Shown here: piece after piece, positions 521 through 19,204 of the stretch
Position numbering within the stretch: position 1 is the stretch's first letter
Layout: each line of letters opens with the position of its first letter
Assembly: GCA_024275415.1 (NCBI GenBank)
Contig: JAJRZD010000040.1
Span: 1 to 25,943 of the forward strand
Direction of reading: 5' to 3'
Source: an archaeon
GTDB lineage: Archaea > Asgardarchaeota > Thorarchaeia > Thorarchaeales > Thorarchaeaceae
DNA length: 25,943 bases
Translations under genes and position numbers: made by a program
Notes under the pieces: model-generated
The model's database searches: none
What the model was told of the DNA's origin: nothing
What the model saw: only the letters and a program-made list of their open reading frames with translations

Positions 521-1438
521 ATGCAGTTGGCCCTACTAGATAGCGTTATCAAGAACGTCTATCTATTCCATCGAAACGGTACTCCATTACTTGATGTACC
601 ACTTGACGCATCCAACAAGCTCAGACCTGAAACTATCAAGGGCATGTTCGAACGACTGTTCGATGCGATTGACGAGGTTTTCACCGAGTTAGGACATACT
701 GACATCAGGTCAGTTACGGTCAATGATGGGCTCCTCGTGTACAAAGTGCAAGACCCCTTCCTTTTCACGGTATACACGAACAGACCAAAATATGAGGAAT
801 TTGCTCGTTACATGGTAGAGCAAGTGGAATACGAATTCAGCAGAGTATACAGCGATATTCCACGTCTGGGAACATCAGAGGTGTACGAATCACATTTCGA
901 CCCCTTTGAAGCAAGAATTAGAGAGATCTATGAGACCCTTGCCCGACTGTATCAAGACTATCCAAAGCTGATGGCATTCCTGCCGACTTTTGTACCGCTC
1001 TTCCGATTGAATGAGGTTCTAAGCCTCGGGCTCGACATAATTGCGGGATACCCTCACGACACCATCAAGCTAGTTCGTCAGCTGAACCCACTTTTCTCAG
1101 ATGCCCCCGAGCTAATTGATGCGATCGCTAGGACTATTGGCCGGTATTCGGGTTGTGAGATTGCAAAGCGTCACTTCGAACCATCATTAGTGCGTAACCA
1201 ATCCGATGTGCTTCATCTGTTGAATGAGATTTCAGTGACAAAGATTGATGAGTCAAACGAGGTTTTTGACATCGTGCTTTGTCCGGTTTGCAGGAATCGG
1301 GTATCCGAGAAACCGATATGCCAATTCTTCAGTGGGTTCATTGAAGGGGTTCTTGACAACCCGGGCATATCAGTTGAGGAAACGGCATGCAAAGCAACCG
1401 GTGCACAGAGTTGCAGATTCAAACTGAATATGTCTTGA
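521..1438 (+). CDS. Longin/roadblock-like N-terminal domain fused to a C-terminal V4R (Bet3/TRAPP-like fold) domain; paralog A
   Basis: The first ~110 aa show the longin-like pattern (VYLFHRNGTPLL ... AIDEVFTELG..IRSV ... LLVY ... FLFTVYT ... VEQVEYEF). The C-terminus has the V4R pattern IGRYSG, CPVC, ICQFFSGFIEGVL, VEETACKATGAQSCRF (C...E-x2-C-x7-C). Confidence 0.8.
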   Translation: MQLALLDSVIKNVYLFHRNGTPLLDVPLDASNKLRPETIKGMFERLFDAIDEVFTELGHTDIRSVTVNDGLLVYKVQDPFLFTVYTNRPKYEEFARYMVEQVEYEFSRVYSDIPRLGTSEVYESHFDPFEARIREIYETLARLYQDYPKLMAFLPTFVPLFRLNEVLSLGLDIIAGYPHDTIKLVRQLNPLFSDAPELIDAIARTIGRYSGCEIAKRHFEPSLVRNQSDVLHLLNEISVTKIDESNEVFDIVLCPVCRNRVSEKPICQFFSGFIEGVLDNPGISVEETACKATGAQSCRFKLNMS

Positions 1439-1454
1439 AGCAATAATTCATGAT

Positions 1455-1856
1455 ATGGTAGTTCACTCATCGATTGCAGGAAGATTTAACACCGATTTAA
1501 CTAAGAACGGACAAGAGGTGGTTCCTATCCAAACTGGTTTGATTGACCCGGACGACATAATCCTCATCAGTACCGAAGCGCTGATTGTGGTTGGTCTCTT
1601 TCTTGCTGTAGTTCTCGCATATCTTGTACAGAAACGCCATGCGAAGATAGCCACTGGCTGGAATCTTATCCTACTTGGACTGTTCTTCTTGTTTCTCCAT
1701 GCCACCTTTGATATGTTAGATACCTTACAGATTGACGATTTAATAGTAGATATCCTTCAAGTCCTAGATGGTTCGACATTTGTTATCGGGTTAATCATGT
1801 TTGCTATTGGCATATACCGGATAGCGGACTTTGGTGCGAAGAAATGGGGGTTGTAA
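1455..1856 (+). CDS. Small membrane protein with 3 predicted TM helices, paralog B; true start may be GTG at 1518
   Basis: Three hydrophobic stretches (EALIVVGLFLAVVLAYLV; WNLILLGLFFLFLHATF; STFVIGLIMFAIGIY). It aligns with the next gene. Confidence 0.75.
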   Translation: MVVHSSIAGRFNTDLTKNGQEVVPIQTGLIDPDDIILISTEALIVVGLFLAVVLAYLVQKRHAKIATGWNLILLGLFFLFLHATFDMLDTLQIDDLIVDILQVLDGSTFVIGLIMFAIGIYRIADFGAKKWGL

Positions 1857-1859
1857 CAG

Positions 1860-2228
1860 ATGCAGGACCTACAGATCGACTTTCATCCACCTGACGATAT
1901 ACTTGGGTATACAAAAGCATTCCTTGACGCTGGAGCTGCAGTGATGTTCTTTATTGTACTGATTGTCATTATCTATGCTCGGAATCGCTATCCAGTCATG
2001 GAACGAAATAGAACCTTTTTGCCATTGGTTCTCTTTGCAGTGATGGGCTTCATCAGTACGGTGATGGATGCCTACGATGAGTGGTTCTGGTTCAGTCCCA
2101 GTGCATTCTATAACACCATCTGGAAACCTATCAGGCTCTCTCTCTTTCTGATCGGAATCTTCATACTAATCATCGCGTTCTACCAATTCTATGAATTCTC
2201 GCAACGTCTATTCGGAGAAGAGAATTAA
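1860..2228 (+). CDS. Small membrane protein with 3 predicted TM helices, paralog B'
   Basis: Three hydrophobic stretches (AGAAVMFFIVLIVIIYA; FLPLVLFAVMGFISTVM; LSLFLIGIFILIIAFY). Starts 3 nt after the previous stop; its TAA overlaps the next ATG (TAATG at 2226-2230). Confidence 0.8.
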   Translation: MQDLQIDFHPPDDILGYTKAFLDAGAAVMFFIVLIVIIYARNRYPVMERNRTFLPLVLFAVMGFISTVMDAYDEWFWFSPSAFYNTIWKPIRLSLFLIGIFILIIAFYQFYEFSQRLFGEEN

Positions 2229-3127
2229 TGGATAACCTAGCAAAAACCGTGTACATTCTCCATCTCGATGGGACGCCTGTCCTCCGAGTTGACTTTGACC
2301 ATAACGCTACTGATAATTCGGATGATTTCTTTGGGCTCTTCAGTGGGTTCTCAAGTGCCATCAACACCTTTGTGAAAGAATTAGGGCATAAAGAGATAAA
2401 ATCTATCAGCGTAGGCGATGGCGTTCTGGTCTATAGTTCCCGTGAGCCATTGCTTTTTGTTGTTCATTCCACGAATGAAAGATACGAACAGCTTGCAAAG
2501 CTCATAGTGAAACAGATCGAATACGAGTTCATGGAATCCTATAGTGAGGTTCTCAACTCTGACAATGCATTCGTGCTCCATGATTTCTTCAAACCATTTG
2601 AGGCGACAGTGATCCACATCCACGACACTCTGAAGAGCCTCCATTTACATCATCCAGACCTTTTGGAGTTCCTACCAAGCTTCATCCCGTTGTCTGCACT
2701 GTATGAAGTGCTAAATATGGGTCTTGATGTGATTGAAGGTTATCCCAATGATACAATCAAAATAGTCCGGCAGCTTGACAAGTACTTCACACAAGAGAAT
2801 GATTACGAGATTGCTTCTGTAGCATTAGGACGATATTCTGGACACATGATTGCCAGAAAACGATTCAAGAATGAGCCTGTCATCGACCACGATAAGGTTC
2901 TCAAGCTGCTGAATGAGATTTCAGTGGTGAAGTTCGACTCCTCACAGGAAGTCTTTGATTTTCACCTTTGCCCAATTTGCCGTGGAAAACATGCAGGACA
3001 TCACATCTGTCATTTCTTCAGTGGATTCATAGAAGGCGCTCTGGACAATCCGGGCATTGACGTTGAAGAGATAACATGTAGGGCGAGCGGAGATTCGTCA
3101 TGCAGCTTTAAGTTGCATCGAATATGA
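2228..3127 (+). CDS. Longin/roadblock-like + V4R (Bet3/TRAPP-like fold) fusion protein; paralog A'
   Basis: Longin-like VYILHLDGTPVL ... LFSGFSSAINTFVKELG..EIKSISV; V4R region LGRYSG, CPIC, ICHFFSGFIEGAL, VEEITCRASGDSSCSF. Collinear with 521..1438. Confidence 0.8.
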   Translation: MDNLAKTVYILHLDGTPVLRVDFDHNATDNSDDFFGLFSGFSSAINTFVKELGHKEIKSISVGDGVLVYSSREPLLFVVHSTNERYEQLAKLIVKQIEYEFMESYSEVLNSDNAFVLHDFFKPFEATVIHIHDTLKSLHLHHPDLLEFLPSFIPLSALYEVLNMGLDVIEGYPNDTIKIVRQLDKYFTQENDYEIASVALGRYSGHMIARKRFKNEPVIDHDKVLKLLNEISVVKFDSSQEVFDFHLCPICRGKHAGHHICHFFSGFIEGALDNPGIDVEEITCRASGDSSCSFKLHRI

Positions 3128-3802: not shown

Positions 3803-4312
3803 ATGCCAAAGATTGAGAGAATCAAAAAGCGACATCTGTTGAAGCGAAAACAACAGAAAGCTGAAATACAGCGGATTGAGCAAGGATTGGGCGTCAAAGT
3901 CAACATTGATGATAAGACCCAATTGGAAACGGGAGTTCTGGATGACGGGACTCGTGTGCTATTGTATGGAAGTGAGATCCTATTCTTTGAGAAAGACAAG
4001 AGATTCTTTCCCACACTGCACGCTCTTCTAAAGAGTATGGTTTCGGTTCCGAAAGTCACCGTTGACATGGGTGCAGTTCGCTTTGTCGTCAATGGTGCAG
4101 ACATCATGAGACCTGGCGTGGTTGCAGTTGACGATTCTGTCAGAGAGAACTCTGTTGTTGCCATAGTGGATCAAAACCATGGCAAACCTCTTGCAGTGGG
4201 CATCTCCAAAATGAATGCCGAGGAGATGTGGGCCTCAACCAAGGGGAAGGTCGTCCTATCGATCCATCATGTGAATGATCATCTGTGGGATTTCACGAAA
4301 GGCCAGTCTTAG
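3803..4312 (+). CDS. PUA-domain RNA-binding protein (Tma20/MCT-1-like); start moved to ATG 3803
   Basis: FFPTL...PKVTVDMGAVRFVVNGADIMRPGV...KPLAVG...KGKVVLSIHHVNDHLW is the pre-PUA + PUA signature. ATG 3803 gives the typical basic N-terminus MPKIERIKKRH. Confidence 0.9.
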   Translation: MPKIERIKKRHLLKRKQQKAEIQRIEQGLGVKVNIDDKTQLETGVLDDGTRVLLYGSEILFFEKDKRFFPTLHALLKSMVSVPKVTVDMGAVRFVVNGADIMRPGVVAVDDSVRENSVVAIVDQNHGKPLAVGISKMNAEEMWASTKGKVVLSIHHVNDHLWDFTKGQS

Positions 4313-6999
4313 TCCTCCTCATCACTCGACATCCTTGCCCGAACATAGGCAAGTGCTGCTTTGTAAATCTCTTTCGCATAGATGGGATCTAGCCCTGAGT
4401 TCTCTGCAAACCTATCCCGAGCAAGCGTTTTCTTTTCCGGGTCGACATATTTCTTTAGGATGTCCGAGATTGATCTATACCCTTTGTCGTAGAGGGCTCT
4501 TGCGTCTTGTTTTGGCAATGTATATTGATATCCGTTCTTATCGAAAAGTTCCAACTCCAAGATATCAGTAGACACAATGTCCGACCTTGCCCCATATCTG
4601 AGTTGTTCGCTAAAGAGTTCCATGCGTTTGGACAGCCTTTTCCTTTTAATCAACTGGTAATAGTTGCTCAATTTCATCGCAATCTCACTACAAATATTGA
4701 TGAGCGAGTCAAGGTCACCTTCTTCGATGCCTACTGTGCCTATATTCTCATTGTTGATAGTCATGTTCCGCCCCTCCTCGTTGGCAAAGGCTAACACATC
4801 AGGCATATCGGATTCATTAATCCATCTCTCTAGAGCAGCACCCTTTATTCGCATCCGTCCCAGGGTCAGTACATCAAACCATGCATCAGGTTTCTCAAGC
4901 CCTGCCGCCTCCAGTTCAATCTCTGTGGGATAGGATGTTCTTGGTCTGACTATCTGTGCTTCATCGAAAGATAATACAAGGTCAATCATCTGCGTGTCAG
5001 AAGCATCATTGTCGAGCGCATCGATTTCATCTTGTTTCTCGAGATATCGGATGATCCCAAGCCCCGAACGAGCTGCCGCCAGTGTGTTTTCTGATAGCCT
5101 ATATCCCTTAACTGAAGAAACGAATACACCCTTCTTGTTCATCCATCCGAGAAGTGACTTATACATATATTTCATGTACTCCAAGTAGTCGCCATGCTGC
5201 ACACCCCGATAGGTTTCCGAAACTAGTCCCATCACCGCATCTTCTAAGATTTCCCACGAGAAATGCTTGAGGTACATAGCCTCTCGAACAATTAGATTTG
5301 CCATGACGGAGGGATGAATGCCCCCAGGCCGAATTGGTTTTAGTGGTTTATGAAGAAGCGTTTCTTCTAGCTCCTCTACTGTCTGAAATGTCTTCGAGGG
5401 CTGTTCAAACACAAGATACACACTGCCCCCGTATTTTGCAAGGTGGTATTCTCCAATCCTTCCAGCTATCTGGAGATATCGGGATCTGGCGGATAGGAAT
5501 CCCATTGCCCGGTCAAAGAGAATCACGATGCAATCAAAAGGAAAGCTGATCCCTGCAGTGATTCCTGTGGTAGATACGACAGATCGCACCTTTCCAATCT
5601 TGACTTTTTCTTCAAGACGTCTACGAACTTCAGAACGCAATCCTGAATGGTGGAATGCGACACCTTGCTTGAGAAACTCGTATAGTTGACCAGCGACAGG
5701 TAAGGTCTTGTCCTTTCCCACGACATATTCAGGAAGTGACTGATCAATGCTCCTAGGCCAGTGCCTTGAGATGACTCCAGCAAAGAATATCGCTTGGTAT
5801 CTGGAGGAAACCACAACAAGGATGGATTTTCTCTCATAGTCTCCCAAGTGTTCGATTATTGACTCGAGGACATACTCTTTCTGAAGAAGTGTTTTCTGCG
5901 TTCCATCGCTACTTGCAATCAGTACTCCATCATCCTCTTTCGTGACAATGAACTCGTCTGGACTGAGCCTAACACTAGGCCTGAACACTTTGGCATCCAG
6001 CCACTGCGCGATGGAATCAGTATCACCAAATCTTGATGACAATGTGATAATCCGTGATCTCCTCTTCAACAGCGTAATCAAAAGATCCAATCTTGAACTT
6101 CGATCAGTTCCCAAATTACTTGCAGTAACCTCCTGGATTGAAGAATCTAGCTCAGTCAGCTCATCAACAATGGTCAGCCGTATCTTGGAAACCCATTCTT
6201 CTGCCTGAAGGACATCAGAAAGGACGGCCTCATAGACTCCAACCACAATGTCAGCGTTGACCAGATCATCAACGGTGATTTTTTGTGTCCCATCAAGTCG
6301 TACAACTGAATATCCTAGATCCTTGAACAACTCCCCATACTCATTGATGACCTGTGTGTTGAGAGAAAGATATGGACTGATATAGAGACATTTCCGATTC
6401 TTCTGAAGGTTCATGAGAACCGCCACCATAGCTAAGACAGTCTTTCCGGATCCAGGGGGCATCTGAATAATGATGTTCTCGTCAAGACTCCCAATCTCGC
6501 GAAGAAAATTTTCCTGTGTTGGTAGAAGCTTGGTGTAGTTCTTATGGCGTAAAAGAACCTTGGCTATTTTGAAAAGTTCATTGTCTTTGGAGATTGGTCC
6601 AATCATTTCCTCGATTGCAGATAGTGCAAGTCGTCCTTCGTGAGTGACCATGAATCGTCGTTGTTTCTTCCGCTTATCTCCCAATGCCTGTACGTAACCT
6701 GCTTTGACAAGCTTGTTCATGCTCTCATAGAGTGTCCCACCGGTGGTAAGCTTCTTCCGAGCATTGTCATAATTGACCATTTCATCAGACCGCTCCCCAT
6801 CAGGACGGGACTTCGGTATATTATAGCCCATATTGGATAGAAGTCCTTCCACAATTTCTTCCCATCCCATTTCAGGGATTATATCACCAGCTTCTGGATT
6901 GAGAACCTGAAGTATCTCGATTGCATAACGATTTCCTAAGGACCTAAGATTGGCTCTCAATCCTTTGAGGTCATCGATTTCAGGTTTTTCCGCAGGCAT
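4309..6999 (-). CDS. Ski2/Hel308-like SF2 helicase with an N-terminal winged-helix (ArsR/MarR-like) domain and divergent helicase motifs
   Basis: Walker A MPPGSGKT, Ia YISPYLSL, II IVDELT, III LSSR, AFHHSGL, V STTGITAGISFP, VI QIAGRIG, and a C-terminal HhH-like ARALYDKGYRSISDI. The N-terminus has wHTH hallmarks (LRSLGNRYAIEILQVL ... TLYESMNKLVKAGYV ... RFMVTHEGRLAL). ATG 6999 is preferred over GTG 7008. Confidence 0.8.
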   Translation of the reverse strand: MPAEKPEIDDLKGLRANLRSLGNRYAIEILQVLNPEAGDIIPEMGWEEIVEGLLSNMGYNIPKSRPDGERSDEMVNYDNARKKLTTGGTLYESMNKLVKAGYVQALGDKRKKQRRFMVTHEGRLALSAIEEMIGPISKDNELFKIAKVLLRHKNYTKLLPTQENFLREIGSLDENIIIQMPPGSGKTVLAMVAVLMNLQKNRKCLYISPYLSLNTQVINEYGELFKDLGYSVVRLDGTQKITVDDLVNADIVVGVYEAVLSDVLQAEEWVSKIRLTIVDELTELDSSIQEVTASNLGTDRSSRLDLLITLLKRRSRIITLSSRFGDTDSIAQWLDAKVFRPSVRLSPDEFIVTKEDDGVLIASSDGTQKTLLQKEYVLESIIEHLGDYERKSILVVVSSRYQAIFFAGVISRHWPRSIDQSLPEYVVGKDKTLPVAGQLYEFLKQGVAFHHSGLRSEVRRRLEEKVKIGKVRSVVSTTGITAGISFPFDCIVILFDRAMGFLSARSRYLQIAGRIGEYHLAKYGGSVYLVFEQPSKTFQTVEELEETLLHKPLKPIRPGGIHPSVMANLIVREAMYLKHFSWEILEDAVMGLVSETYRGVQHGDYLEYMKYMYKSLLGWMNKKGVFVSSVKGYRLSENTLAAARSGLGIIRYLEKQDEIDALDNDASDTQMIDLVLSFDEAQIVRPRTSYPTEIELEAAGLEKPDAWFDVLTLGRMRIKGAALERWINESDMPDVLAFANEEGRNMTINNENIGTVGIEEGDLDSLINICSEIAMKLSNYYQLIKRKRLSKRMELFSEQLRYGARSDIVSTDILELELFDKNGYQYTLPKQDARALYDKGYRSISDILKKYVDPEKKTLARDRFAENSGLDPIYAKEIYKAALAYVRARMSSDEED

Positions 7000-7117
7000 A
7001 ACCACCACTCACTAATTCCGAGTAATCCAAGGTAAAATCTGTTTCGAATAGAGTTTCGGATAATACTCGCCCTTTTCTTTACGTCTGTTCTACTTCTGAT
7101 TGTCGAGGTGAATGTGT

Positions 7118-7516
7118 GTGAGATTTTTGTTCAAGCGCAAGGGTGAAGAAAGTAGTTCGGGTGAAACTGCTGGAATATCTCCAGATTCAAGATTGGGTGT
7201 GTTCTCTCCTATCTCAGAACCCCCGCAACCAGATCCTGTTCGTGAATGTAAACGACTTGCAGAGCTTGATGAAATCTTCATTCGATCCAAGAGTCTGACT
7301 TCACTGGACGATGTTCCTTTTATCGTGGATCAGATTCGTAATGGAAACATAGTCCTGCTCGATATTGGTCGTCTGAACGATGGGCGTGAGCAGACACACC
7401 TTGAATTGAAACGCATCATTGAACGAATCCGAGGAGAAACGCGTAGTTATCGTGCTGACATCGCCCTAGTCAACGATTCCACTGTGATTGTAGCACCATC
7501 ATTTGTGCGATTCTGA
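7118..7516 (+). CDS. sepF: Cell division protein SepF (archaeal type); likely GTG start at 7118
   Basis: SLTSLDDVPFIVDQIRNGNIVLLDI...LKRIIERIR...DIALV...VIVAP core and an amphipathic basic N-terminus (RFLFKRK). GAGGTGA at 7105-7111 sits 6 nt before GTG 7118. Confidence 0.85.
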   Translation: MRFLFKRKGEESSSGETAGISPDSRLGVFSPISEPPQPDPVRECKRLAELDEIFIRSKSLTSLDDVPFIVDQIRNGNIVLLDIGRLNDGREQTHLELKRIIERIRGETRSYRADIALVNDSTVIVAPSFVRF

Positions 7517-7520
7517 GTAT

Positions 7521-9446
7521 CTATCGCAGTTTGATGGTTTCTGTGACGGAAAGTGCCTTCGTGTCAATGTTCATAGATTTATGAATAGTAGATGCCAGAT
7601 TGATGCACTTGGAAGCCTCACCGTGGCATGTCAATACTTTTTCAGGAATAGGGTTGACTCTCTTGATGAAGTTCAGAATCTGTTTTCTATCAGAGTGACC
7701 AGAAAAGCCCTCAACCGTTTCAACTTGGAGGTTGACTGGGATAATCTGTTTCTGGCCTTCTCGGTTTCTCATCTGTGCTTCTTTCCAACCCTTTTGGATT
7801 CTTCTACCGAGTGTGCCTTCACCTTGATATGATACAAAGCAAACGGTGTTCTTCGAGTCAGGAGCAAGCAGACGGAAATAGTCCACACTGGGGCCACCAG
7901 CAAGCATCCCAGACGTTGCCATTATTATGGCAGGCTCCCCTTCGATAATCTCCTCACGCTGCTCAGGATTGTCCACTTGCACGAAGATGTCATTCAAGAA
8001 GGGGTTGACACCCTGATGAAATATCATTTCTCGTATCTTCTTGCTAAGTGCTTCTGGGTGTGTGGTATGGATGGCGGTCGCTTGAGCGATCATTCCCTCC
8101 AGATAGACTGGTATTCGGGGAATCCTTCCTTTGGACACCAAGTCTTCGATTACCAACATAATCTCTTGTGCTCGTCCCACAGCCAGCACGGGGATGAGAA
8201 CTTTTCCTCCACGTTCAATAGTCCGCTTTACTACAGATGCGAATCTCTTCTCGACCTCTTGCCGGGGTGGCATTTTATCAGTCGGATGGCCATATGTGCT
8301 TTCAACAATGAGGGTTTCAAGCCTCGGAAACGTGAATGTCGCAGGTTCAAGCAGCCGTGTCCGACCAAACTTGAAGTCGCCTGTATATGCCAGATTATAT
8401 TGACCGTCTCCAATGTGAAGATGAATGATTGCAGACCCAAGGATATGACCTGCATTATGGAGGGTGAGACGCACATCTGGGGCTATATCTGTGACTTCTC
8501 CATAGTTGAGTGGTATTGTGTGAATGATAGCCTCCTTCACATCGCGCTCTCGATATGGTCGAAGCTTGCCTTCCCGTTCGGCAACCTCGAGATAATCCAG
8601 CTGCAAGAGGGTGGCAAGGTTGAGTGTGGGCGCTGTCATATATACAGGCCCTCTGTAGCCGTACTTGTATAGGAATGGTACCATTCCGCAATGGTCAAGA
8701 TGGGCATGTGTGATAATGACCGCATCTAGTTGTTCGATATTGAACTCGGGCATGTCCAACCTTGGAAACGCCTTGCTAGGGGTGCCAACATTGACACCAC
8801 AGTCAATCAGGATGTTAGTTTCAGGCGTTTGCAGAAACATAGACTGTCTTCCGACTTCCTTGAACCCACCAAAGGCTACAAGTCGAATCCACCCGTTCTC
8901 TATCATTGCCCTGCGATGGATTCGTCGTCCAATCTCGCGAAATGCCCGATTTCTCTTTGCTGCCTCAGATTGGATAATATGTCGAATCTGCTTTATGAGA
9001 AGGCTTTCGATTGGTGGTGTCCTCATCACATTTGGGCGCCAGAGGGTCTGACGAGTTATCTCCCTAAGGGTCGTGCCACTCCGACCAATGACCAGTCCGG
9101 GTTTTTGAGCCTCGATAATGACTTCGCCTCTCGAATCGTCAAAGTCGATGCTAGTGATAGTCGCATCCTCGGGGACTAGCTCCTTCACGAGTCGTTCTGT
9201 TTCATCATGAGGAAGTCGCACTTCTGGAGAGGATCTGACAACGATTCTTTTTCTCATCTTTCGTGCAAGAGCCTTGATCTTATCCCCGTCATCTAGAAGG
9301 ATCTTGGGTGCTTTTGAGTAAATTGCAATCTCAGGTCCTTCATACTCCACTGAGCTAATCGAAGCAGATCGAGGAAGAGCAGCCTTGACTATATCTCGAA
9401 TGTCCATGTTATTATCATCGTAATTGTTAGAAGCCATACTAGTCAC
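7521..9446 (-). CDS. fttA: Beta-CASP ribonuclease aCPSF1 / transcription termination factor FttA (2 KH domains + MBL + beta-CASP)
   Basis: VEYEGPEIAIY, KH motif KPGLVIGRSG, GGFKEVGR, HAHLDHCG, AGHILGS, YTGD, ESTYG, FSGHSD, CHGE; adjacent to psmB. The start could be 9446, 9437 or slightly downstream. Confidence 0.95.
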   Translation of the reverse strand: MTSMASNNYDDNNMDIRDIVKAALPRSASISSVEYEGPEIAIYSKAPKILLDDGDKIKALARKMRKRIVVRSSPEVRLPHDETERLVKELVPEDATITSIDFDDSRGEVIIEAQKPGLVIGRSGTTLREITRQTLWRPNVMRTPPIESLLIKQIRHIIQSEAAKRNRAFREIGRRIHRRAMIENGWIRLVAFGGFKEVGRQSMFLQTPETNILIDCGVNVGTPSKAFPRLDMPEFNIEQLDAVIITHAHLDHCGMVPFLYKYGYRGPVYMTAPTLNLATLLQLDYLEVAEREGKLRPYRERDVKEAIIHTIPLNYGEVTDIAPDVRLTLHNAGHILGSAIIHLHIGDGQYNLAYTGDFKFGRTRLLEPATFTFPRLETLIVESTYGHPTDKMPPRQEVEKRFASVVKRTIERGGKVLIPVLAVGRAQEIMLVIEDLVSKGRIPRIPVYLEGMIAQATAIHTTHPEALSKKIREMIFHQGVNPFLNDIFVQVDNPEQREEIIEGEPAIIMATSGMLAGGPSVDYFRLLAPDSKNTVCFVSYQGEGTLGRRIQKGWKEAQMRNREGQKQIIPVNLQVETVEGFSGHSDRKQILNFIKRVNPIPEKVLTCHGEASKCINLASTIHKSMNIDTKALSVTETIKLR

Positions 9447-18616: not shown

Positions 18617-19204
18617 CTATCTAGTCCTATGTGAGAATTCCTTCAACTTCTCACCGAATGGGTCAATCTCTGGGGTTTCGTCCTTCTCAATCCTCTCATC
18701 TTGATATTGGAACAGAACTGATTCCCCGGTAACTGCAGAGGTTATTGCACGGAGTTCATCCTTTGAGTACCTTATGCGTTCTCGATCCTCGGATCTTAGC
18801 ATGACAATGCTTTCCTTTATCCCGTTTGGTAAGTACAGACTATTCACACCTACTTCGACGGCTGGAGAAATCAGATCTCGGACTATCGTTCGCAACTTTG
18901 CAGGGCCCTCGACAATCATAGACTTCCCAAACGTATCAGCAATCGCATCCATGACAACTTCATTCTGTAACAGGATATCCTTGTTCTTTTTCTTGACAAC
19001 TAAGATGAGAAGATTCTTTGTACGGATTGCCCGGAGCAGATGTAAACCATCCAGATCCGGATGGCTTTTTTTCTGTTCGAGAATCCATCCGCTAAACTCC
19101 ACATCGAAGGAAGAGATCTGTCCGGTATCAAGACGTTCCTGACAGCTGGGGCATAGCATATCTGATTCCAAGTCAAAAATACATACTGGGAGTCGCATTA
19201 GCAT
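18617..19204 (-). CDS. Archaeal NusA-like protein with an N-terminal zinc-finger-type motif (NusA2 family)
   Basis: MRLPVCIFDLESDMLCPSCQERL..G.IS..DV N-terminus followed by KH-like segments (LLILVV...; LISPAVEVGVNSLYLPNG). Confidence 0.8.
   Translation of the reverse strand: MLMRLPVCIFDLESDMLCPSCQERLDTGQISSFDVEFSGWILEQKKSHPDLDGLHLLRAIRTKNLLILVVKKKNKDILLQNEVVMDAIADTFGKSMIVEGPAKLRTIVRDLISPAVEVGVNSLYLPNGIKESIVMLRSEDRERIRYSKDELRAITSAVTGESVLFQYQDERIEKDETPEIDPFGEKLKEFSHRTR

Follow-up and report, generated by a model that had tools for sequence, protein, structure and literature searches.

The stretch of DNA analysed here (the window, 25,943 nucleotides (nt)) comprises positions 1-25,943 of contig JAJRZD010000040.1 in assembly GCA_024275415.1, which belongs to a member of the Thorarchaeaceae within the Asgard archaea. 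A cassette of four genes at positions 521-3127 encodes two longin-V4R fusion proteins, A and A′, and between them two small proteins with three predicted transmembrane (3-TM) segments, B and B′ (Table 1). A first-pass annotation, made from the letters of the sequence, had described four co-oriented, tightly packed genes, the outer two being full-length paralogs that fuse a longin with a V4R/Bet3-fold domain and the inner two being paralogous 3-TM proteins. It had further proposed that the mirror-symmetric order A-B-B′-A′ encodes an A:A′ heterodimer, resembling the core of the transport protein particle (TRAPP) of eukaryotes and anchored in the membrane by B and B′. The description of the genes was borne out. 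All four open reading frames (ORFs) lie on the plus strand, and the junctions were found again as 16 nt between A and B with the ORF starts as called, 3 nt between B and B′ (TAA-cag-ATG), and an overlap of the B′ stop with the A′ start (TAATG). A and A′ share 46% identity over 298 amino acids (aa) (BLASTP, E 3e-99), and Pfam V4R matches, AlphaFold2 (AF2) models and structural alignments identify both as fusions of the two folds. Regarding the start of B, its relatives begin ~21 codons downstream of ATG 1455, matching GTG 1518 in the family alignment, and residues 1-21 of the longer frame are not conserved among them. Therefore, B is probably the 112-aa protein, and the gap between A and B would be 79 nt.

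Table 1. Features of the four-gene cassette (positions in the window).
Feature	Position	Strand	Description	Basis
A	521..1438	+	longin-V4R fusion, 305 aa	ORF call, Pfam V4R, AF2 model
B	1455..1856	+	small 3-TM protein, 133 aa from ATG 1455; likelier 112 aa from GTG 1518	
B′	1860..2228	+	small 3-TM protein, 122 aa, B paralog; translationally coupled to A′	
A′	2228..3127	+	longin-V4R fusion, 299 aa; ancestral, pan-Asgard copy	
A longin domain	545..958	+	residues ~9-146, topology β-β-α-β-β-β-α-α	AF2 secondary structure, structural alignment
A V4R/Bet3-fold domain with CPxC...C...C...C	962..1435	+	Cys254/257/267/290/298 invariant	Pfam V4R
A′ V4R/Bet3-fold domain	2654..3124	+	residues ~143-299; predicted docking surface for B′	
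A′ five invariant cysteines C248, C251, C261, C284, C292 and E281	2969..3103	+	probable Zn site	

Comparison with other Asgard genomes revealed that the conserved unit is B-B′-A′ and not the mirror cassette A-B-B′-A′. With a profile of A, relatives over the full length were retrieved from four Asgard GTDB families and partial matches from further ones, and every single-copy relative is nearer to A′ than to A. In nearly all loci with enough flanking sequence, homologs of B and then B′ lie upstream of the fusion gene on the same strand; an A-family gene is present in 28 loci, B′ in 26 and B in 25. The triad is carried by Thorarchaeota, Hodarchaeota, Heimdallarchaeum endolithica, Heimdallarchaeum aukensis, Gerdarchaeota and other Heimdallarchaeota. 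The B′ alignment, used as a query, retrieved B′ from 48 of 400 Asgard genomes, 46 of which are also matched by the A profile, and one more has an A-family gene next to B′. Distant loci from Loki, Borr and other lineages, including those of the cultured Lokiarchaeum ossiferum (NEF87_000078), Harpocratesius repetitus, Borrarchaeum and metagenome-assembled genomes of Promethearchaeota, hold B, B′ and an A-family protein of 254-289 aa in eight cases out of eight, and these proteins align over their full length with the A family (hhalign probability 99.6-99.7%). Adjacency of the triad was seen in loci from more than 10 GTDB families. The order is mostly B-B′-A, with A-B-B′ in two families and a convergent arrangement in one (L067); B always precedes B′, and B′ and A′ are joined by start/stop overlaps or short gaps. 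The flanking genes are lineage-specific (an Asp/Asn-tRNA synthetase-type gene, MFS transporters, AMP-binding enzymes, a restriction-modification gene and an M23 peptidase), and because they differ between lineages, the triad moves as a unit. In a Heimdall group (L055-L062, L072), one flank consists of up to four tandem MFS-transporter paralogs and the other of a divergent pair in the same BLAST cluster, a 485-aa gene without a Pfam match and a 462-aa AMP-binding enzyme; this synteny is kept within the family only. In one Thor lineage, a 260-268-aa gene without a Pfam match lies on the opposite strand between B′ and A′ (4973-5779, minus strand, in L004/L005), and this is the sole interrupted triad seen.

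The second fusion gene, A, is a recent duplicate confined to the genus, and the mirror cassette is a local elaboration of B-B′-A′. This follows from two observations: the window's genus (G000, G325 and G328) is alone in having two fusion copies, against one in all other genomes, and a maximum likelihood tree groups A with its ortholog in G328 and with the G325 copy that lies upstream, in a clade (96/93) nested within the Thor family clade (100/99). Relatives outside the genus keep the gene order of the triad and not the four-gene layout, and with a single fusion protein there neither the mirror arrangement nor an obligate A:A′ heterodimer is conserved. The two copies are 37% identical in the longin domain and 53% identical in the V4R domain. 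A changes near-invariant small residues of longin helix α1 (G40R, S42F and S43D in A′ numbering) and keeps all residues of the predicted contact with B′ described below.

The inner proteins B and B′ show no significant similarity in BLASTP (E 0.12), and their paralogy emerges from profile-profile comparison: the two family alignments match with an hhalign probability of 96.5% (E 8.8e-10, 101 columns), and the hidden Markov models of the two families cross-match each other in the loci of distant genomes. Three hydrophobic segments are present in B, in B′ and in most relatives. The two families also share a charge pattern, with few K/R at the N-terminus, 3.3-3.6 K/R in loop 1 and 3.4-3.6 D/E in loop 2. 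This distribution of charges implies a topology with the N-terminus outside and the C-terminus inside, in which loop 1 and the tail would be cytoplasmic. Invariant residues are E41, G75, D86, D89, T90 and G119 in the B family and P45, M69, D73, E74, W77, R116 and G119 in the B′ family. D-x-x-D/E motifs are conserved in both proteins at the outer end of TM2, suggesting a possible external site for a cation or another ligand. No Pfam family matches B or B′, and a feature search of the ESM Atlas with B′ returned only unnamed clusters (best 0.94).

Complex prediction with custom alignments placed A′ on B and B′. The three-chain prediction, scored on A′, gave an interaction prediction score from aligned errors (ipSAE) of 0.64 against 0.32 for the best of three controls, and it passed; the mark is reached by 58 of 80 solved complexes and by 2 of 110 mismatched pairs, a calibration that is only rough for custom alignments and three chains. 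Contacts agree between the runs to at least 93%, with a partner predicted local distance difference test (pLDDT) value of at least 80. The predicted contacts on B′ are residues 45-49 in loop 1 (RYP..ER) and 116-120 in the tail (RLFGE), which include the invariant P45, R116 and G119 and belong to the segments predicted to be cytoplasmic by charge bias; B contributes Trp131. On A′, the contacts are residues 173-181, 229-233 and 246-252 (motifs GYPxDTIKxVR, NEISV and LCPxCR), all of them in V4R and none in the longin domain. Conservation at these A′ residues is far higher than elsewhere in the V4R domain (0.82 versus 0.54, permutation p 5e-5). To our knowledge, no solved structure resembles a B:B′:A′ complex, so it is unlikely that the prediction passed from the memory of the predictor. 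The earlier suggestion that B and B′ serve as a membrane anchor thus gains support from the conserved synteny and from the controlled prediction. The same results bear on another account, in which the genes are neighbors without physical association, B and B′ forming an independent membrane pair (e.g., a transporter or channel subunit) and A′ being a co-regulated soluble regulator. Such an account could draw on the lack of a Pfam or Atlas family for B and B′, on the unrelated gene between B′ and A′ in one Thor lineage (L004) and on the convergent A gene in L067, but it has to contend with adjacency across more than 10 GTDB families, with matched presence in 46-47 of 48 genomes and with a docking prediction that passed its controls and whose contact residues are the invariant ones. 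We consider it very improbable.

The N-terminal domain of the fusion proteins was examined with an AF2 model of A built on 19 homologs (pLDDT 80.8, predicted template modelling score (pTM) 0.78). The model contains an N-terminal β-β-α-β-β-β-α-α domain followed by a C-terminal domain of helices and four strands. The N-terminal elements are strands at residues 12-17 and 22-27, a helix at 36-57, strands at 63-67, 70-77 and 80-86, and helices at 89-109 and 129-146; unlike the roadblock topology α-β-β-α-β-β-β, the modelled domain has no N-terminal helix. Structural alignment was run exhaustively against 48,161 PDB representatives. The top matches of residues 3 to ~145 of A were VAMP7 (Z 13.3, 123 aa, root-mean-square deviation (rmsd) 2.7), Fuzzy (Z 13.1) and Sec22 (Z 12.7), followed by the longins of synbindin/TRAPPC4 (Z 12.1), SRX (Z 11.8), sedlin (Z 11.2), Bet5/Trs23 (Z 10.7) and Mon1/Ccz1 (Z 9-11). 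Roadblock proteins (MglB, LAMTOR) matched at lower values (Z 7.7-8.8). The model and the alignments place longins on top, which upholds the first-pass assignment of this domain as a longin rather than a PAS or GAF domain. The recognition is by predicted structure only, as Pfam longin models gave no match above threshold; the best was Fuz_longin_1 in A′ (E 0.0016, 19.1 bits; cutoff 26.1), found in 1 of 30 family members. Longin helix α1 is rich in small residues (LFGGFSSAI) and is among the most conserved parts of the fusion family. The invariant Gly in the β1-β2 loop was considered as the GP-motif/arginine-finger of longins that act as GTPase-activating proteins (PMC12290439); this reading was set aside, as the Pro after the Gly is not conserved in the family alignment. 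In about a dozen Asgard genomes (families f14/f15, e.g., G100:C32:114293-114670), open frames that are 620-736 aa long (one has 237 aa) begin with ~130 residues that are the nearest sequence relatives of the A/A′ longin (E ~1e-11 to 1e-13); the remainder has no clear Pfam domain in the representatives P0099 and P0113. In addition, P0059 (419 aa) combines an A/A′-related longin with a hint of an NPRL3-like C-terminal helix-turn-helix.

The C-terminal domain matches Pfam V4R (PF02830) in both proteins (A, E 1.7e-10, 41.3 bits; A′, E 3.2e-9, 37.2 bits; cutoff 31) and in 30 of 30 family members above threshold, and Pfam TRAPP (PF04051) remains below threshold (E 0.22, 11.7 bits; cutoff 27). When the A′ domain was folded alone on 36 sequences (pLDDT 92.3), its structural matches were PoxR (Z 12.2), Thor-TRAPPC3 (7YH2; Z 11.9, 126 residues, rmsd 2.9), DmpR (Z 11.2), Bet3 (2cfh_A; Z 11.1, 126 aa, rmsd 2.6) and MJ1460 (Z 10.4), with H-NOX and BcsD below them and a background at Z ~5; no fold outside the V4R/Bet3 superfamily reached similar values. 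The Z values of PoxR, Thor-TRAPPC3, DmpR and Bet3 lie within ~1 of each other. Foldseek puts Bet3 first (2j3w_E, E 8.3e-5) and Thor-TRAPPC3 next (1e-4), with MopR/PoxR at ~1e-2, whereas hhalign coverage favors a MopR-like protein of the same genome (probability 91%, 165 columns) over Thor-TRAPPC3 (probability 82%, 97 columns). With Z values this close, a Pfam V4R match above threshold and a Pfam TRAPP match below it, these comparisons do not place the modelled V4R domain nearer to Bet3 than to the bacterial V4R sensors.

Five cysteines of the A′ domain are invariant in alignments of 30 and 36 sequences, and E281 is nearly invariant; together they are a probable Zn site. All five, including the CxxC pair, align with cysteines of this genome's ortholog of Thor-TRAPPC3 (PDB 7YH2 and 7YH3), a stand-alone Zn-binding homodimer of the same fold. 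In the crystal structure of Thor-TRAPPC3, Zn is held by 4 Cys (PMC10933270). Thor-TRAPPC3 is nevertheless a different gene, with no longin domain and no described membrane-partner genes. An identification of A and A′ as its orthologs was rejected: a search of PDB sequences with the family profile missed 7YH2/7YH3 as well as Bet3 and matched only the V4R protein MJ1460, marginally (E 0.089). The genome encodes a separate true Thor-TRAPPC3 ortholog of 157 aa (E 1e-75 to 7YH3), which also has a sequence match to eukaryotic TRAPPC5; it lies at G000:C127 (L008:2103-2573, minus strand) and matches zebrafish TRAPPC5 chains at E 0.004. Adjoining it is a 182-aa V4R-like protein (L008:1480-2025, minus strand) without a PDB sequence match, and the two may be a TRAPPC3-like pair. 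On another contig (G000:C57, L009:1441-2097, minus strand), a 219-aa protein is nothing more than a phenol-sensor V4R domain of the MopR/PoxR/CapR type (E 1e-10 to 6IY8); its ORF encodes neither an AAA+ nor a DNA-binding part. As the genome encodes these two proteins separately, A and A′ are a third V4R lineage in it. P0066 (520 aa), which joins Roadblock/LC7 (E 1.7e-5) to a V4R domain at its C-terminus (E 6.5e-10), corresponds to the longin-V4R fusion with a roadblock in place of the longin.

PoxR, MopR and DmpR bind phenols, and Bet3 binds palmitate. In the former, V4R is the N-terminal sensor of sigma-54 AAA+ transcription activators and has a Cys-Glu-Cys-Cys Zn site; they are the best structural match of the A/A′ domain and have the C...E-x2-C-x7-C pattern in common with it. 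A and A′ differ from the PoxR type in having no AAA+ or DNA-binding part and in their extra CPxC, their fused longin and their pairing with membrane proteins. This resemblance bears on an alternative in which the triad is a ligand-sensing or lipid-handling module: the V4R domain would bind a small hydrophobic molecule or a lipid, perhaps passed from the membrane by B and B′, or B and B′ would sense an external cation through their acidic outer loops, and the longin would serve for output or oligomerization only, with no GTPase involved. The V4R match in every member, the PoxR and DmpR scores and the presence of H-NOX sensors among the matches, the retained sensor-type cysteine pattern and the D-x-x-D/E motifs common to B and B′ all speak for it, as do the lack of a linked GTPase gene and a patchy distribution suited to an accessory sensor. 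Tran et al. (2024) likewise regard Asgard TRAPPC3/V4R proteins as probable ligand binders (PMC10933270). The fusion protein, however, has no DNA-binding, kinase or other classical output domain, and the strong conservation of helix α1 implies a specific protein partner. Such a sensing role is a possibility that we hold only tentatively; it is compatible with the docking of A′ on B and B′ and does not exclude it.

The eukaryotic TRAPP core (Bet3/Trs31/Trs33 with Bet5/Trs23/Trs20), a guanine nucleotide exchange factor (GEF) acting on Rab1/Rab11, uses the same two folds as A and A′. In TRAPP, these folds are separate subunits of a peripheral complex without a Zn site, whereas in A and A′ they are fused and predicted to sit on integral membrane proteins; the Asgard module is further set apart by a Pfam TRAPP score below threshold, the lack of a GTPase link and a single fusion protein per genome outside the window's genus. 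According to the proposal of the first-pass annotation, an A:A′ longin heterodimer would create a V4R-longin:longin-V4R array that acts as a GEF for a Rab-like GTPase and is anchored by B:B′. The presence of both TRAPP-core folds in one chain is in line with this proposal, as are the TRAPPC4, TRAPPC2 and Bet5/Trs23 longins among the matches (Z 10.7-12.1), the Bet3 match (Z 11.1, Foldseek 8e-5) and the divergence of A from A′ mainly in the longin domain, as expected of an asymmetric heterodimer. However, A is recent and two copies exist in one genus only, so a heterodimer cannot have been the mechanism of the ancestor. In structural alignment, the V4R domain matches bacterial sensors as well as it does Bet3, its Pfam TRAPP match is only at E 0.22, and a true TRAPPC3 ortholog that detects eukaryotic TRAPPC5 by sequence exists separately in the genome. 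Moreover, TRAPP longins are equalled or outscored by those of SNAREs, adaptors, SRX and Fuzzy, no GTPase is linked, and the V4R face that touches B′ may be unavailable for Bet3-type pairing. The longin and V4R folds and the membrane anchor of the earlier reading are supported, and mimicry of the TRAPP core through A:A′ is not supported as a conserved mechanism; we rate that arrangement as improbable.

The fusion as such has been published. Heimdallarchaeota MBD3190748.1, which was presented as an AF2 longin-TRAPPC3 model by Tran, Akil, Senju and Robinson (2024, Commun Biol 7:273, Fig. 9g; PMC10933270), belongs to the same family (A/A′ profile E 1.6e-57, profile positions 4-298 against residues 1-289). 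It has the same architecture of a longin with a Zn-type V4R/TRAPPC3 domain, and two small genes (115 and 130 aa) lie directly upstream. That paper shows one sequence as a domain combination and does not describe the spread of the family, the two 3-TM partners or the membrane docking (PMC10933270). In the literature searched, no description of the pan-Asgard family, its 3-TM partners or their docking was found.

Building on the gene content, the paralogies, the folds, the conservation of the triad across Asgard archaea and the history of the duplication, the following mechanism is proposed. B and B′ would most likely pair in the membrane, with the N-terminus and the acidic TM2-TM3 loop outside and the basic loop 1 and C-terminal tail in the cytoplasm. 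A′ would dock on their cytoplasmic face through its zinc-type V4R/Bet3-fold domain and keep its N-terminal longin domain free beside the inner membrane face. By analogy with the longin/roadblock platforms SRX-SRβ, MglB-MglA, Mon1-Ccz1 and TRAPP (PMC3747258), helix α1 of this longin may pair with a second longin and/or bind a partner, for example an Asgard small GTPase, and the V4R pocket may report a small hydrophobic ligand. In the window's genus, where copy A retains the docking residues and has a changed helix α1, A might combine with A′ into an asymmetric pair on B:B′. The SRα SRX domain on SRβ, Ragulator anchored by LAMTOR1, and the tri-longin GEFs Mon1-Ccz1 and Fuzzy follow a like logic, in which a longin platform is held at the membrane. 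The Asgard module would differ from them in its tether, predicted to consist of V4R and two 3-TM proteins; no description of such tethering was found.

We consider it probable that B, B′ and A′ form a membrane complex. The full arrangement, a B:B′ pair that docks A′ through V4R and leaves the longin free at the inner face, is the explanation we prefer, by a slight inclination. Several observations weigh against it. The support for docking is the confidence of the predictor itself, and the predicted contacts and their conservation are partly dependent, as the predictor used the same alignments. The score still reached 0.32 when B was replaced by an unrelated protein; for this reason, B′ appears to carry most of the predicted interface, and the role of B in it is weakly supported by the model. 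The confidence of helix α1 in the AF2 model of A is low (pLDDT ~50). The triad is patchy: within the window's own family 14 of 85 genomes have it, and several genomes that are >90% complete do not. This patchiness argues against a core housekeeping role in trafficking. Beyond the triad, no conserved neighbors, in particular no GTPase genes, were seen in ~35 loci, and, as the first-pass annotation had remarked, the window itself has no GTPase gene: in none of the 24 large ORFs scanned (the 4 cassette ORFs and 20 others) was a GTPase domain found. Regulation of a GTPase as the output of the module is a doubtful possibility. A bolder version of the model holds that B:B′:A′ is a membrane-embedded receptor for a longin-Bet3-fold platform, that this platform recruits or activates one specific small GTPase of Asgard archaea at the cell membrane, that the module is a surviving relative of the machinery behind the eukaryotic longin/Bet3 GEFs (TRAPP and the tri-longin GEFs), and that A/A′ represents a step from homodimer to heterodimer as in Bet5/Trs23 and Mon1/Ccz1; we think this unlikely and put it forward as a conjecture.

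The remainder of the window, which is classed here as housekeeping, encodes L37e, Sm, a PUA protein, a Ski2/Hel308-type helicase, SepF, FttA, proteasome beta, KsgA, Pus10, TruD and succinyl-CoA synthetase. The helicase (4309-7008, minus strand, 899 aa) contains DEAD, ResIII and Helicase_C domains, and ~160 residues precede its helicase core. The cell-division gene sepF (7112-7516, plus strand) is convergent with the gene for the transcription-termination factor FttA/aCPSF1 (7521-9446, minus strand). Between TruD and a second β-CASP ribonuclease gene, a 195-aa ORF (18617-19204, minus strand) has no Pfam match at E 1e-4. A scan for sigma-70 promoters and terminators gave counts equal to the shuffle expectation; it is uninformative for an archaeon.

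Asgard archaea encode many longin, roadblock and TRAPPC3-like proteins, and the A/A′ module belongs among them, with a defined membrane partner as the added element. The genes of such proteins are generally not in operons with GTPase genes (PMC10933270). The conserved linkage in Thor, Heimdall, Hod, Gerd, Borr and Loki loci, together with the residue-level docking prediction, ties one longin/TRAPPC3-like family to two dedicated integral membrane partners. We regard the module as a candidate, open to test, for a membrane-anchored complex that serves in signalling or as a GTPase platform, and not as a demonstrated forerunner of TRAPP. The diverged duplicate in the Thor genus provides a natural comparison for the origin of asymmetric longin pairs, and the presence of the triad in the cultured Lokiarchaeum ossiferum makes localization, pull-down and partner identification feasible. 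A positive outcome of such work would reveal the place of an Asgard longin platform in the cell and the partners that it recruits.

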